Counted from the first letter of the stretch, positions 58,242 to 62,095 are shown. The stretch: 64,000 nucleotides of DNA from Anaerolineales bacterium UBA2395 (GCA_002343775.1 DDSH01000022.1:239746-303745); one strand, 5' to 3'. Notes: a model not told the origin generated them from the sequence alone. A program made the numbers and translations.

Positions 58242-58625
58242 TTACTCGACAAAGATTTCCACGTGCTCGCCATCTTCTTCATCAGTCACATCGATGATCT
58301 TGCCCGTGACGCCCATGCGCAGCGCTTCCATGACGTTGCTCATGTCCACGCCCTGAACTTCGGGGGCAAAATGCGCACCGATCTTGAGACCGGCATCCAC
58401 AAGGGCAAGCGGAATCTGAACGGAGGCTTTCGAGCGCCCGGTACGGGTGTCGGTGACGCGCACTCTCAACATCCGCGCCCCTCCCGCTGATGGCGGACGA
58501 GGCGGTGTGGGGATGCCGCGTCGGGAGTCGCTAAGCGCTGAGAGTAGTTTCGCGCCTTCCTCCGCACTGATCTTGCCCTCCTCGATCAATTTCAGGATTT
58601 TCATTCGCTCTTCGCTGTTTGCCAT
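58242..58625 (-). CDS. SHOCT-like bihelical domain plus YvlB/LiaX-like C-terminal domain protein
   Basis: EERMKILKLIEEGKISAEEGAKLLSAL ... IPLALVDAGLKI ... DGEHVEIFVE. RBS GAAAGGAG precedes ATG 58625. Confidence 0.8.
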   Translation of the reverse strand: MANSEERMKILKLIEEGKISAEEGAKLLSALSDSRRGIPTPPRPPSAGGARMLRVRVTDTRTGRSKASVQIPLALVDAGLKIGAHFAPEVQGVDMSNVMEALRMGVTGKIIDVTDEEDGEHVEIFVE

Positions 58626-58674
58626 GTTATCTCCTTTCACCGTTCAGGGTCGAAACGCCGAACAGATTTTGTTT

Positions 58675-59961
58675 TTATCCTGCAACAGCAGGTAAATTTT
58701 CTTCCGTTGCTTTTTCCGTTTCAGGCTGTTCTTCGGTCTTCGGAAGTTTGAACTTCAACCAGATCGGGATGACAGACAATAAGAGCACAGATGCCGTGAT
58801 CGTAAAGGGCGTTGTCGGACCGAATCGATCCCACAACTGACTACCGATCCACGGTGCGGGCAAGGAGACCACTCCCAGACTGGTGCTGAGAAAACCGAAC
58901 GCCAGGCCGCGCAACTTCTGCGGCACCGCCTTGCTGATCAGCGAGGAATACGCCGGTTGTGAAATACCCGCCCCCAATCCTGCCATGCCCCAGCCGACAT
59001 AATACAACCACTGTCCCGATGCGCCCAGCGGATAGATATTTACCAGCAGGAACAACGAAGCAGACATCAGGACCATGCCCAATGCGATTCCGACACGCTC
59101 CCCTGCTTTGTCTGAAAGCCAGCCGCCCGGAATGGTACTCGCCATCATGCAGATACCGAAGAAAGAAGTCACCCAGCCGATCTGCTGATACGAAAGACCG
59201 CCCACCTCCTGCATATAGACCGGAAAAAGGCTGCCGGAAAACTGAAAAGATATGTCTCGCAATCCATCCGTGATGAGCATCCATGTGATCAAACCGCCTG
59301 AGAAGATCATGCCGATCATCGCGCCGAGATTCGTCTTCAGGCTGGAAAAAGAAAGTGTCTTCTTTTCACCATTGGCTTTTTCACCCCGCGCGGCTTCGCG
59401 CGCCATGCTCAAACGCATGACCATCGCAATAAAGTAGAACACGCCCGCCACGAACAACATCAGTTTGAAACTGAACGCGCCCGCCAGCCAGCCGCCGAGC
59501 GGAGGTCCAACCACGGCGACGATCATGAAGATCGCCTGCGAAATGCCATAGACCTTGCCACGATTTTGTTCAGTGGAATGTTCGGCAATGAAGGCATCGA
59601 AACTCGGACCCACCAACGAACGAGCCACCGCGCCAATGGCTGTTGCCATCAGCAGCCACTCCCAGCGGTCGGCAAGAATGAGCGGAATATACCCGAGCAC
59701 ACCGAACACACTTCCGATGGCAATGGCTCGCAAACGCCCAAGCGAATCCGATACCCAGCCGCCGAGGATTTGAAGAAACAGCGGTACGATCATCGACAAT
59801 GTAAAAAATAGACCTATGTCGGTAATATCCGCACTCAACTCTTTAAGATACAACGGTAAAAGCCCATCATACATGCTCCCGCCGACATTCGCAAAGATCA
59901 TCGCCGTCAGGAACAGGATCAGTATTCCACTCAATAAAGGTTGTTTTTTTACGGTTTCCAT
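58675..59961 (-). CDS. MFS transporter embedded in the SHOCT operon
   Basis: GGWVSDSLGR and GGWLSDKAGER motif A repeats with about 12 TM helices. It starts 2 nt after the upstream stop. Confidence 0.9.
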   Translation of the reverse strand: METVKKQPLLSGILILFLTAMIFANVGGSMYDGLLPLYLKELSADITDIGLFFTLSMIVPLFLQILGGWVSDSLGRLRAIAIGSVFGVLGYIPLILADRWEWLLMATAIGAVARSLVGPSFDAFIAEHSTEQNRGKVYGISQAIFMIVAVVGPPLGGWLAGAFSFKLMLFVAGVFYFIAMVMRLSMAREAARGEKANGEKKTLSFSSLKTNLGAMIGMIFSGGLITWMLITDGLRDISFQFSGSLFPVYMQEVGGLSYQQIGWVTSFFGICMMASTIPGGWLSDKAGERVGIALGMVLMSASLFLLVNIYPLGASGQWLYYVGWGMAGLGAGISQPAYSSLISKAVPQKLRGLAFGFLSTSLGVVSLPAPWIGSQLWDRFGPTTPFTITASVLLLSVIPIWLKFKLPKTEEQPETEKATEENLPAVAG

Positions 59962-59963
59962 TC

Positions 59964-60605
59964 TTATCCTATAAAGACTTGCACCTTTTCGCCATCATCG
60001 GCATCATCCACATGCACGATCAACGGCGCTTCCATATCCTTCGTCATGGAGATCACCTGCACCACATCGTCCAGGTTCGTCCTCTTCAAACCTTCGATGC
60101 GGCTGCCAAAAGTACGCAGAAACCATGCCACCAGCCCCAACGGAAGCGGAAACGCCAGCGAAATATGCCGCGGACCATCCTTATCCTTCGAACGGGTGCG
60201 GTCCACATCCACATACAACCAGCGCGACGTACGGCTGCTTGCACCAAGGGCAATCAACAATATGCCCAGGAATAGCGGCATCCCCATGCAATAGAACCAG
60301 AAATTCAGTCCCGCATTTTGCTGAATACCAAACATCGCCCAGGCGCTCAACACCGTGAAGATGACACCGATCCACAGGAACGCAGTCGAAAAGCGATGCG
60401 CCCGCCGCCGGACTGCGTCGATCTCTGGCGCTTCGCTTCTTTCTCCGCCGATACCGGGTGCCGCTTCAAAAACCTCCTCCTCCCCGTGAGCAGATTCGGC
60501 TTCCGCGTCCCCATCCAGCGCACGCATCAATGTCGCAGCTTCTTCCGCGCTGATCTTGCCATCCGCAACCATTTGCAGGATCTTTCTGCGTTCTTCTGAA
60601 GACAT
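59964..60605 (-). CDS. SHOCT-like domain, two TM helices and YvlB-like C-terminal domain
   Basis: EERRKILQMVADGKISAEEAATLMRAL, two TM helices, and PLPLGLV ... DDGEKVQVFIG. TAATG overlap with the upstream gene. Confidence 0.78.
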   Translation of the reverse strand: MSSEERRKILQMVADGKISAEEAATLMRALDGDAEAESAHGEEEVFEAAPGIGGERSEAPEIDAVRRRAHRFSTAFLWIGVIFTVLSAWAMFGIQQNAGLNFWFYCMGMPLFLGILLIALGASSRTSRWLYVDVDRTRSKDKDGPRHISLAFPLPLGLVAWFLRTFGSRIEGLKRTNLDDVVQVISMTKDMEAPLIVHVDDADDGEKVQVFIG

Positions 60606-61705
60606 TACGAGCCTCCTTCCAATGCCGATAAAAGTTGTTCCGCTTGTTCTGCTGTAATCTTCTTTTCCTGAAGCATCTTCAAGATCGCCAATCGTTCCTC
60701 TTCAGACACCTGCGGCTTGGAAGGGACAGGCACGCCCTTCGGTGCGAAATCCCAATTCCAACGCCCGATCTCCAACCCGCCTTTGAAACGGCGGGAACGG
60801 CGTTCCACATCGCGCACCTTGTGCTCGGCGCGGCGCGCGGCTTCCTCCGCTTTGCGCGTGGCGCGAGCAGTCACCTGCTCCACGCGGCGGGAGATGCGCT
60901 CGCCAAACCCCGACCAATCCATGCCCATGCCTGCAAAATTGCCAAAATCTTCAGCGGATTCTCCGGCATCCGAACGGTTGGATACGCGGATATCTCCGCC
61001 TGCGCTCAAACTAAAGGCTGCCCCGCCACTTCCCAAAACCACAGACCGGCTGGTGGCATCTTTGTCATTTTCTACGCCATCCCAATCGATGTCGATCTCG
61101 TCGGCGCTGAGCGTCAGTGTAGCGTTGGCTTTGGGCGGCATCACCAGCAAAATGTCGTCACCTGCCGTCACCGAGTAGGAATTGCCCGGCTGCGGATTGA
61201 GATACATGACTACGTCCTCGCCCACATTGGCGGTCACACTGCCGCGCACGTCGCGCAGGGCAAGGTCGTCTGCGATGGAATCAAGCGAAACGCTGCCATC
61301 CACATCGCGGATGGATACGTCGGAATCCGCTTTACGGATGGATAAACTCCCTTTGGCGCCGCGCAGGCTGAAGTCAGAACGAACCGCTTCAATCGCCACG
61401 GAATTCACGTCGCGCATCGAAAGGTCGCCGCCGATCTCCTTCAAGTCAATACTCCCCACCAATCCACGGATGGAGGCGTCGCCGCTAATGGTTTCAATCA
61501 ATACAGTCGCGCCTTTCGGCACGCGCATCGAAAGGTCGTCGTCGCAGGAGACCGTCACCTGGTCGCCGTCCTGGCTGACGCGCAATTCATCATCGTCGGC
61601 TTTGAGAAGGATATCGTCCCCCTCCCAGCCTACGAGGCTGAGATCCCCGCCAATGGATTCGATCCGGATGTTGGGCGTGCGCCCGGCAGAGATGGTCTTG
61701 GACAT
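60605..61705 (-). CDS. DUF4097 beta-solenoid repeat protein with C-terminal SHOCT-like motif
   Basis: Repeats of IESIGGDLSL, IETISGDASI and LKEIGGDLSM, a helical linker, and EERLAILKMLQEKKITAEQAEQLLSALE. Confidence 0.85.
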   Translation of the reverse strand: MSKTISAGRTPNIRIESIGGDLSLVGWEGDDILLKADDDELRVSQDGDQVTVSCDDDLSMRVPKGATVLIETISGDASIRGLVGSIDLKEIGGDLSMRDVNSVAIEAVRSDFSLRGAKGSLSIRKADSDVSIRDVDGSVSLDSIADDLALRDVRGSVTANVGEDVVMYLNPQPGNSYSVTAGDDILLVMPPKANATLTLSADEIDIDWDGVENDKDATSRSVVLGSGGAAFSLSAGGDIRVSNRSDAGESAEDFGNFAGMGMDWSGFGERISRRVEQVTARATRKAEEAARRAEHKVRDVERRSRRFKGGLEIGRWNWDFAPKGVPVPSKPQVSEEERLAILKMLQEKKITAEQAEQLLSALEGGS

Positions 61706-61708
61706 GGT

Positions 61709-62095
61709 TTATTCCTCCTCGCCGCGCAAAATGCGCATGGCTTGGTCAGCAGTGATCTTTCCGGCTTCGAGGTCGGCAATGACACTGCTGCGGGTTTCGT
61801 CATCCACTTCATCGGGGGTTTCATCCCTGCCAGGCTCATAGCCCAGTTTGCGAATGACCTCGTGCAAGCGGTTGCGGATGGTAGGATAAGACAGGCTCAA
61901 TTCCTGCTCCATGCGATTGATCTTGCCTTCGCAGCGTACGAATGTGAACACGAACTCCATCTGCTCCGGCGAAAGGTTCGAAAACTGCCCCAGTGCGAAA
62001 TGACCTTCCATGGACGTATCGCAAGAGGAGCAGTGCAGGCGGACAACTTCAAATTCCGATTGACAGATTGGGCAGCGGGTAGGTGCGGGTCGCAT
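61709..62095 (-). CDS. DUF2089 protein (Zn ribbon, HTH, SHOCT-like)
   Basis: CPIC...CSSC, FVRCEGKINRMEQELSLSYPTIRNRL HTH and C-terminal LEAGKITADQAMRIL. Confidence 0.88.
   Translation of the reverse strand: MRPAPTRCPICQSEFEVVRLHCSSCDTSMEGHFALGQFSNLSPEQMEFVFTFVRCEGKINRMEQELSLSYPTIRNRLHEVIRKLGYEPGRDETPDEVDDETRSSVIADLEAGKITADQAMRILRGEEE

Follow-up and report, generated by a model that had tools for sequence, protein, structure and literature searches.

A DUF2089-centred operon with recurring SHOCT-like modules in an uncultured Anaerolineales bacterium

Results and discussion

A five-gene operon around a DUF2089 factor

A DNA stretch of 64,000 nucleotides from the uncultured Anaerolineales (Chloroflexota) bacterium UBA2395 (GCA_002343775.1, DDSH01000022.1:239746-303745; hereafter the window) contains five minus-strand genes, g1 to g5, which are co-oriented and tightly packed at positions 58242-62095, counted from the first letter of the window. 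They encode a DUF2089 transcription factor, a Toastrack protein, a major facilitator superfamily (MFS) transporter and two related proteins, g3 and g5, in which a short SHOCT-like module (hereafter the tag) is combined with a domain here called X. We give an even chance to the reading that this locus is a kinase-free and sigma-free regulatory module built around the DUF2089 factor, in which the tags tether the regulator to membrane-bound and soluble partners. Comparison with other genomes shows that DUF2089 and SHOCT-X together make up the invariant unit, two partners that are evolutionarily inseparable, and that the MFS transporter is a lineage-specific, swappable cargo (an output or a co-sensor) and not a defining part. 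A first-pass annotation of the same DNA had proposed a SHOCT-tagged signalling operon inducing an efflux pump; its parts list and general idea were right, but the pump is not the defining output.

The five genes are listed below, with the sources of each assignment.

61709-62095, minus strand: g1, DUF2089 regulator, 128 aa (Pfam, AlphaFold2 (AF2) model, Foldseek)
60605-61705, minus strand: g2, Toastrack/DUF4097 beta-helix protein, 366 aa (Pfam, conservation profile)
59964-60605, minus strand: g3, SHOCT-like module, transmembrane (TM) hairpin and domain X, 213 aa (Pfam, BLASTP, profile, sequence inspection)
58675-59961, minus strand: g4, MFS_1 transporter, 428 aa (Pfam, NCBIfam)
58242-58625, minus strand: g5, soluble SHOCT-like and X protein, 127 aa (Pfam, AF2 model, homologue profile)

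The gaps between them, as given by the open reading frame (ORF) listing of the window, are 3, -1, 2 and 49 nt in order, identical to the values in the first-pass annotation, and g1 and g2 share a reading frame. Judged by its gene layout, the cluster was confirmed as a genuine five-gene operon.

The g1 protein has a zinc ribbon (PF22747, 45.2 bits against a cut-off of 27.6) in which the CPIC...CSSC signature is present, followed by a helix-turn-helix (HTH) domain (PF09862, DUF2089-HTH, 73.9 bits against 33.4). In the family alignment C8 and C22 are nearly invariant, while the first Cys pair is missing in some members. The AF2 model (pLDDT, the predicted local distance difference test, of 80) consists of a zinc-ribbon hairpin, a four-helix HTH with its helices at aa 43-83, an acidic linker modelled as disordered, and the tag with its two helices. 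About 50 aa of the modelled HTH superpose in Foldseek, at a root-mean-square deviation of ~2 Å, on RcsB, DosR, GerE, LiaR, VraR and region 4 of SigL, an extracytoplasmic function (ECF) sigma factor, and the domain thus resembles the LuxR/GerE/sigma-4-like class. This agrees with the grouping "GerE-HTH/DUF2089-HTH" used by Ravi et al. (PMC11237479). All three DUF2089 domain families (zinc ribbon, HTH and SHOCT-like) are now in Pfam, and a PDB sequence search found no relatives of g1. The start codon is the ATG at 62095, which is preceded by a conserved GGAG in the alignment of related loci; a GTG at 62110 was rejected as it falls within this Shine-Dalgarno region.

The Toastrack/DUF4097 domain of g2 (PF13349, 32.8 bits against 22.9) covers aa 84-229. 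Neither a TM segment nor a signal peptide was found, and no hydrophobic segment is visible on inspection of the sequence; g2 is predicted to be a cytoplasmic Toastrack protein with a C-terminal tag. An Arg/Lys-rich helical stretch at aa ~263-305 precedes this tag. A PDB sequence search found no relatives of g2.

The SHOCT-like tag

The tag corresponds to PF22746 ("SHOCT-like_DUF2089-C", gathering cut-off 27 bits) and is present in four of the five products:

61712-61801, minus strand: C-terminal SHOCT-like hairpin of g1, aa 99-128, helices 99-110 and 116-123 (AF2)
60608-60703, minus strand: C-terminal SHOCT-like module of g2, aa 335-366 (PF22746, 33.9 bits)
60507-60605, minus strand: N-terminal SHOCT-like module of g3 (PF22746, 42.2 bits)
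58518-58625, minus strand: N-terminal SHOCT-like module of g5 (PF22746, 44.1 bits)

The presence of the module in four products had already been claimed from the sequence, and the claim stands: Pfam finds three of them above the cut-off, and the C-terminus of g1, which is sub-threshold (17.1 bits), is conserved and aligns with the tags of g2, g3 and g5. Its motif, R..IL..L..G.I....A...L, is conserved in every DUF2089 member aligned, and the C-terminal hairpin is kept in all of them, the alignment covering proteins from 17 diverse loci in Chloroflexota plus a Paraclostridium member. Across the whole 4.9-Mb genome, PF22746 gives six matches at E≤0.01, of which four are in this operon and two in the other DUF2089 locus. 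As the genome holds just two DUF2089 loci, the module clusters there far beyond chance.

Within g2 and g3, no segment is better conserved than the tag (0.82-0.86 against 0.51-0.75 elsewhere), which argues that the tags are under selection. For g2 alone the tag scores 0.82 against 0.61-0.74 in the rest of the protein, and for g3 it reaches 0.86. All four tags have a net acidic charge, between -1 and -4, and Glu-rich faces; they fit poorly with binding to anionic lipids and are therefore unlikely to be lipid anchors. An acidic g1 tag facing basic partner tags was considered and is ruled out here, all four being acidic. In loci of this type the tags sit on unrelated domains, namely Toastrack, a GAF-PP2C phosphatase and a repeat protein, as expected of a docking tag.

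The last two of these proteins come from other loci. In the second DUF2089 locus of the same genome (L001 5244-6940; contig C14:51243-52939), the gene of a 131-aa tagged DUF2089 protein overlaps the start of the next one, whose 433-aa product begins with a SHOCT-like module and continues with about eight repeats of ~36 aa (D-L-D-V-D-E-L-V-E-L-A-N-H-D-V-S-P-K-F-I-A-E-L-R...). These repeats match no Pfam family. In a locus from another Chloroflexota family (L090 5573-7072, minus strand), a protein combining the SHOCT-like module with GAF and SpoIIE/PP2C phosphatase domains is encoded beside two g5-like genes, which suggests that a phosphatase, too, can be brought to the DUF2089 module by way of the tag.

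Two SHOCT-X paralogues, one soluble and one in the membrane

The remaining parts of g3 and g5 are as follows:

60240-60392, minus strand: TM hairpin of g3, aa 72-122, with a conserved outer loop of 7 residues (QQNAGLN)
59967-60233, minus strand: C-terminal domain X of g3 (BLASTP to g5, E=2e-5)
58245-58475, minus strand: domain X of g5, beta-beta-alpha-alpha-alpha-beta-beta (AF2)

The tags of g3 and g5 are 62% identical (BLASTP, E=7e-9), their C-terminal X domains of ~80-90 aa are also related at the E-value given above, and a profile built from diverse g5 homologues matches the X part of g3-like proteins as well. From these alignments g3 is recognised as the membrane-anchored paralogue of the soluble g5. 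The first-pass annotation had identified the five parts correctly but overlooked this paralogy, listing the two as a "2-TM" and a "small soluble" protein. What distinguishes g3 is an acidic linker and the TM hairpin, inserted between tag and X. Sequence inspection places Arg/Lys-rich flanks at both ends of the hairpin, and on that account a cytoplasmic location is predicted for both the tag and X of g3.

The AF2 model of g5 (mean pLDDT 83.5) has a two-helix hairpin at residues 2-16 and 21-33, with a pLDDT of 86-97, joined to domain X by a Pro-rich flexible linker. A Foldseek search of the PDB with the full-length model, flexible tag included, gave no significant fold match for X (best E=0.09, TM-score ≤0.28), and a profile search against PDB sequences returned only a spurious match to a de novo TIM protein; since both searches were negative, X appears to have no recognisable solved relative. 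Across 80 related loci, g5 is the best-conserved product, with a median amino acid identity to the window of 88% (range 80-99%), compared with 82% for g1, 77% for g4, 73% for g2 and 66% for g3. Its best-conserved segment is domain X (0.94) and not the tag. The ATG at 58625 was retained as its start and agrees with the N-termini of homologues.

The g5 family comprises 1679 cluster representatives at E≤1e-3. Among these are natural fusions such as TM-X plus SHOCT-X (P0144) and SHOCT-SHOCT-X (P0125), which fit with X and tag modules acting together. The variants seen in the family (P0144, P0125, P0160 and P0232) also include SHOCT-X proteins with long, charged, coiled-coil-like linkers.

Conserved core and variable transporter

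The closest proteins and loci are from uncultured Anaerolineales, including Candidatus Villigracilis and metagenome-assembled genomes of Villigracilaceae from sludge, groundwater and lakes. The genes g1, g2 and g3 are contiguous in all 80 related loci, and g5 is present wherever the contig extends far enough. Gene order was counted in the 63 complete loci. The order of the window (1-2-3-4-5) is found in 42 of them, 3 have the order 1-2-4-3-5, and the remaining 18 have 1-2-3-5 without an internal MFS gene, so that an MFS lies inside the operon in 45 of 63 loci, at two positions. The internal MFS is missing from 20 loci altogether (the 18 complete ones and two incomplete), and 15 of these have a different MFS_1 gene directly upstream of g1 on the same strand. 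This upstream transporter is ~21% identical to g4 and mostly lies ~17 nt from g1, with gaps of up to 285 nt in three cases. The internal and upstream genes taken together indicate that an MFS has been attached recurrently in this bacterial family, yet the attached transporters are non-orthologous and occupy three positions.

Outside this family, the association was examined in 301 Chloroflexota genomes. The g5 family occurs in 171 and DUF2089 in 196 of them, with both present in 167 (odds ratio 145, Fisher p=1.6e-47, uncorrected for phylogeny). In a diverse sample of 20 loci around g5 homologues, one from each of 20 Chloroflexota families, 17 have DUF2089 next to g5 or no more than a few genes away. 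A Toastrack protein is found in ~12 of the 20, mostly with a C-terminal tag, and a local hidden Markov model of g4 matches an MFS in only 2. The 2-TM paralogue of the g3 type occurs in the related Anaerolineales loci, but of the 20 diverse ones L087 alone has it. Toastrack is hence a frequent third member, and the 2-TM paralogue is largely lineage-specific. The pair also exists beyond the phylum: on Paraclostridium bifermentans plasmids and an Embleya replicon, DUF2089 is directly followed by a g5 homologue, and all four plasmid-collection records with a g5 homologue (Bacillota, Actinomycetota) have an adjacent DUF2089. No transporter gene is annotated near the Paraclostridium pair. Cultivable carriers of the pair include Priestia (Bacillus) megaterium QM B1551 (BMQ_3692 and its neighbour) and Paraclostridium bifermentans DSM 14991. 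From this gene association, g5 is best regarded as the obligate soluble partner of DUF2089.

These counts do not agree with an MFS efflux pump as the fixed, induced output, as had been proposed, the MFS being absent from inside 18 of the 63 operons, moved in 3 and largely missing from the 20 diverse loci. The neighbourhoods show instead that the conserved core is the DUF2089 and SHOCT-X pair, which had been overlooked, and that the MFS is variable. As for g4 itself, it belongs to PF07690 (MFS_1, 192.7 bits) and is Drug:H+ antiporter-like, but it falls far below the cut-off of every NCBIfam equivalog (best matches: 75.8 bits against 319.6 for TIGR00900, 68.9 against 475 for Tet(A/B/C)), and its sequence establishes general MFS_1 membership alone.

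Relation to known envelope-stress systems

LiaX and YvlB (Enterococcus, Bacillus) combine a SHOCT-like helical N-terminal domain with a Toastrack C-terminal domain, and work with LiaFSR. In g2, too, a Toastrack beta-helix and a SHOCT-like helical module are joined, but in the reverse order, with Toastrack N-terminal and the tag C-terminal. A further difference is that the transcription factor g1 is itself tagged here, and that no LiaFSR, PspC or holin-like partners accompany it. The SHOCT-like plus Toastrack architecture is named by Ravi et al. for CAB15517.1 (PMC11237479).

The first-pass annotation had stated that no PspA or LiaRS is present here, and the searches agree. PspA/IM30 (PF04012) has no match in the whole 98.6%-complete genome, the control search being positive in 9 of 14 reference genomes, and no histidine kinase or response regulator domain was found in the five products with Pfam and NCBIfam. 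The locus is thus not a Psp system, for want of PspA, nor a Lia system, for want of a kinase and regulator among the five products. Despite its lack of PspA, the genome encodes five Toastrack (DUF4097) proteins, on contigs C3, C4, C16 (two) and C24. The logic may nevertheless be analogous to the partner switching of PspF, PspA and PspBC, with g5 as a soluble negative partner and g3 as a membrane partner that would compete for a transcription factor or set it free, although there is no homology between the systems and neither PspA/IM30 nor an AAA+ enhancer-binding protein is involved here.

The nearest description is that of Ravi, Anantharaman, Aravind, Gennaro et al. 2024 (mSystems), in which DUF2089 was divided into zinc ribbon, HTH and SHOCT-like parts (PMC11237479). 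They reported neighbourhoods of Toastrack and DUF2089 with a sigma factor and an anti-sigma receptor, proposed to be similar to the lia operon, and others in which the three-part DUF2089 protein occurs with Toastrack and a "SHOCT-like+X" protein, for which Lia-like signalling from membrane to transcription was proposed (PMC11237479). In common with these, g1 has the same three-part architecture, and a SHOCT-like+X partner and Toastrack are in the same operon, the Bacillus "X" of that survey and domain X being likened here by their descriptions. There are also three differences from their four-gene core. Its ECF-type sigma factor and zf-HC2 anti-sigma receptor are absent, no such domains being found by Pfam and NCBIfam in the five products or in the flanking CorA, Mef-like MFS and GNAT proteins; a membrane-anchored X paralogue and an embedded MFS are added; and the Toastrack protein is soluble, with its tag at the C-terminus.

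By its domain content, the locus is best described as a lineage-specific variant of a kind already described computationally, and the type of architecture is not new. Whether the architecture was already characterised had been raised earlier; it has been described computationally (PMC11237479) but not functionally. The literature searched reports no experiments on DUF2089, which appears there only as an unannotated ORF, for instance in leaderless-bacteriocin clusters. The module is common, but would not surprise a specialist familiar with the 2024 survey.

The operon promoter

The region between g1 and the divergent corA gene contains the following elements:

62261-62290, minus strand: conserved blocks upstream of the -35 element, ATCAATAATATTGA at 62290-62277 and ATTGATAAT at 62269-62261 (footprint of 26 loci)
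62220-62247, minus strand: sigma-70-like promoter, -35 TTGACT at 62247-62242, 16-nt spacer, -10 TATAAT at 62225-62220
62187-62219, minus strand: conserved blocks downstream of the -10 element, TTTATTAGAAATCAG at 62219-62205 and ATTAATTTC at 62195-62187 (footprint of 26 loci)

The predicted promoter matches the consensus at 11 of 12 positions and lies 125 nt upstream of g1, and TTGACA/TATAAT does not vary among the 26 aligned upstream regions of related loci. TTTATTAGAAATCAG directly follows the -10 element and ATTAATTTC lies ~25 nt further downstream; these two blocks are a candidate operator or 5' leader. Upstream of the -35 element, ATCAATAATATTGA is in the window a palindrome (TCAATA-A-TATTGA), and together with ATTGATAAT it forms a TCAAT...ATTGA inverted repeat, the consensus of the related loci being TCAATAAT...ATTGA. 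These upstream blocks could also be operators. In addition, a perfect 12-nt inverted repeat, TAAAATTATACT / AGTATAATTTTA, with the copies 19 nt apart, brackets the spacer between the -35 and -10 elements (62216-62258). It puts a TATAAT on each strand and could represent a face-to-face promoter pair or an operator.

Proposed mechanism and its alternatives

We infer that the acidic SHOCT-like hairpins are protein-protein docking tags, which would gather g1 with g5, g3 and g2 into a complex beneath the membrane. Docking is preferred to direct lipid binding because the tags are acidic and because g3 keeps a conserved tag despite having TM helices of its own. As g3 and g5 carry the same two domains, they may compete for the same contacts. 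Changes affecting either the membrane or the Toastrack platform would serve as the signal, shifting g1 between a tethered or inhibited state and a free, DNA-binding one, and free g1 would then act at the conserved promoter (62187-62290), with autoregulation of the operon as the presumed result.

Several observations weigh against this tethering mechanism. The Foldseek matches of the g1 HTH have probabilities of 0.9-0.99 but E-values of 0.3-1, which are insignificant by themselves and are explained by the shortness of the domain. The g3 protein has almost no extracytoplasmic loop, and the conserved blocks upstream of the -35 element may equally serve the divergent corA promoter. The classical SHOCT domain (PF09851; Eberhardt et al. 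2013) is, like the present tag, a small amphipathic module of two helices that is attached to the ends of many domains with no relation to each other; in the one assay published, it did not oligomerise with itself (PMC3581485). That assay dealt with a different SHOCT subfamily and with homotypic binding, in a heterologous secreted fusion (PMC3581485); the module studied here belongs to another Pfam family, PF22746, and recurs within one operon. Finally, Ravi et al. favour membrane anchoring over pairing for SHOCT-like domains (PMC11237479).

This last view provides the first alternative, in which the tags are unpaired, each binds the inner leaflet as an independent membrane anchor, and the proteins are simply brought to the same place below the membrane, their contacts being mediated there by the Toastrack sheet. 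It draws on a published inference from many architectures, with the tag on intracellular domains that have no TM segment (PMC11237479), and it would accommodate the lack of self-association of the classical domain (PMC3581485). Against it, the charge and the Glu-rich nature of the four tags are unlike those of known lipid-binding amphipathic helices, g3 retains its highly conserved tag in spite of a TM hairpin, and a tagged DNA-binding factor would be stuck permanently at the membrane unless the binding were regulated. Independent anchoring is thus rather unlikely.

Dominant-negative dimerisation, similar to that of Id and HLH proteins, is an unlikely alternative, in which the g1 tag dimerises the factor, as a single LuxR-type HTH would require to bind an inverted repeat, the tags of g5, g3 and g2 block DNA binding by forming heterodimers with it, and stress titrates these partners away. 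It would account for a g1 that has no other obvious dimerisation domain and an HTH resembling the dimeric GerE/NarL class, as well as for the inverted repeats in the promoter region and for an extremely conserved, obligate partner in g5. The present data do not separate it from simple tethering, and the zinc ribbon could dimerise g1 instead.

A further reading is a self-contained partner-switching relay independent of PspA, in which g5 and g3 compete for the g1 tag by means of their identical SHOCT-like and X domains and the Toastrack protein acts as a platform. The MFS would then be a co-sensor in the membrane that signals transport or membrane state to the TM hairpin of g3, and more than just the regulated output. 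We consider this relay doubtful; if it were true, it would be a new class of one-component-like signalling, based on heterotypic docking between two-helix modules and found widely in Chloroflexota, Bacillota and Actinomycetota.

The operon might instead encode a transporter with accessory proteins, g2, g3 and g5 being structural or regulatory subunits of the MFS complex, g1 an ordinary autoregulator and the tag a product of domain shuffling without a role in signalling. An MFS is indeed attached to nearly all loci of this family, adjacent to g3 in two of the arrangements, and most loci have a second MFS gene (g6) further downstream. The low identity between the attached transporters, their absence from most of the 20 phylum-wide loci, the transporter-free Paraclostridium pair and the persistence of the DUF2089/g5 pair throughout make such a complex distinctly improbable. 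A defence or toxin-antitoxin-like cassette, which small and tightly coupled genes including an HTH protein might bring to mind, is hardly credible, as none of the five proteins has a PADLOC match, the locus keeps stable vertical synteny across 80 loci with corA on one side and g6, the Mef-like MFS gene, on the other, and the GC content of the locus resembles that of its flanks.

Should the tethering of g1 by its tagged partners prove correct, with the tag as a docking code, it would provide a compact coupling of envelope state to transcription that uses neither a kinase nor a sigma/anti-sigma pair. The DUF2089 and SHOCT-X pair is very common: ~55-65% of the Chloroflexota genomes sampled have it, and it is found in Bacillota and Actinomycetota as well. 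The window offers a complete example, with membrane-anchored and soluble versions of the partner and a well-defined conserved promoter, in an organism without PspA.

Operon boundaries and neighbouring genes

Downstream of g5, a further feature was noted at the end of the operon:

58104-58132, minus strand: terminator-like hairpin, 13-bp stem with 8 GC pairs, then TATGTTTTAC, 110 nt after g5

The hairpin is the probable end of the operon before g6, although it is suggestive only, since terminator-like sites are no more numerous here than expected from shuffling. It suggests separate transcription of g6 (56715-58070, minus strand), a Mef/TIGR00900-like MFS gene that lies downstream of g5 in the majority of related loci. 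A GNAT (Acetyltransf_3) gene at 56132-56650 on the plus strand follows g6 and is syntenic in 21 loci; being convergent and beyond g6, it was not counted as part of the system. Both g6 and the GNAT gene probably belong to a syntenic neighbourhood outside the operon.

On the other side, the divergent corA gene for a Mg2+ transporter (62330-63316, plus strand) is kept upstream of the operon in ~65 loci, and a gene for a LexA-like repressor (63289-63999, plus strand) runs past the end of the window. No small upstream ORF was found on the operon strand in 62096-62329, while other lineages have one. In the sister lineages L019 (6705-6950, plus strand) and L041 (6711-6965, plus strand), a conserved ORF of 81-84 aa lies between corA and g1, with a product that combines a hydrophobic stretch and a basic tail with a ...GEK(M/L)QARYT... 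motif. The intergenic region between corA and g1 is shorter in the window than in these two lineages and is without that ORF.

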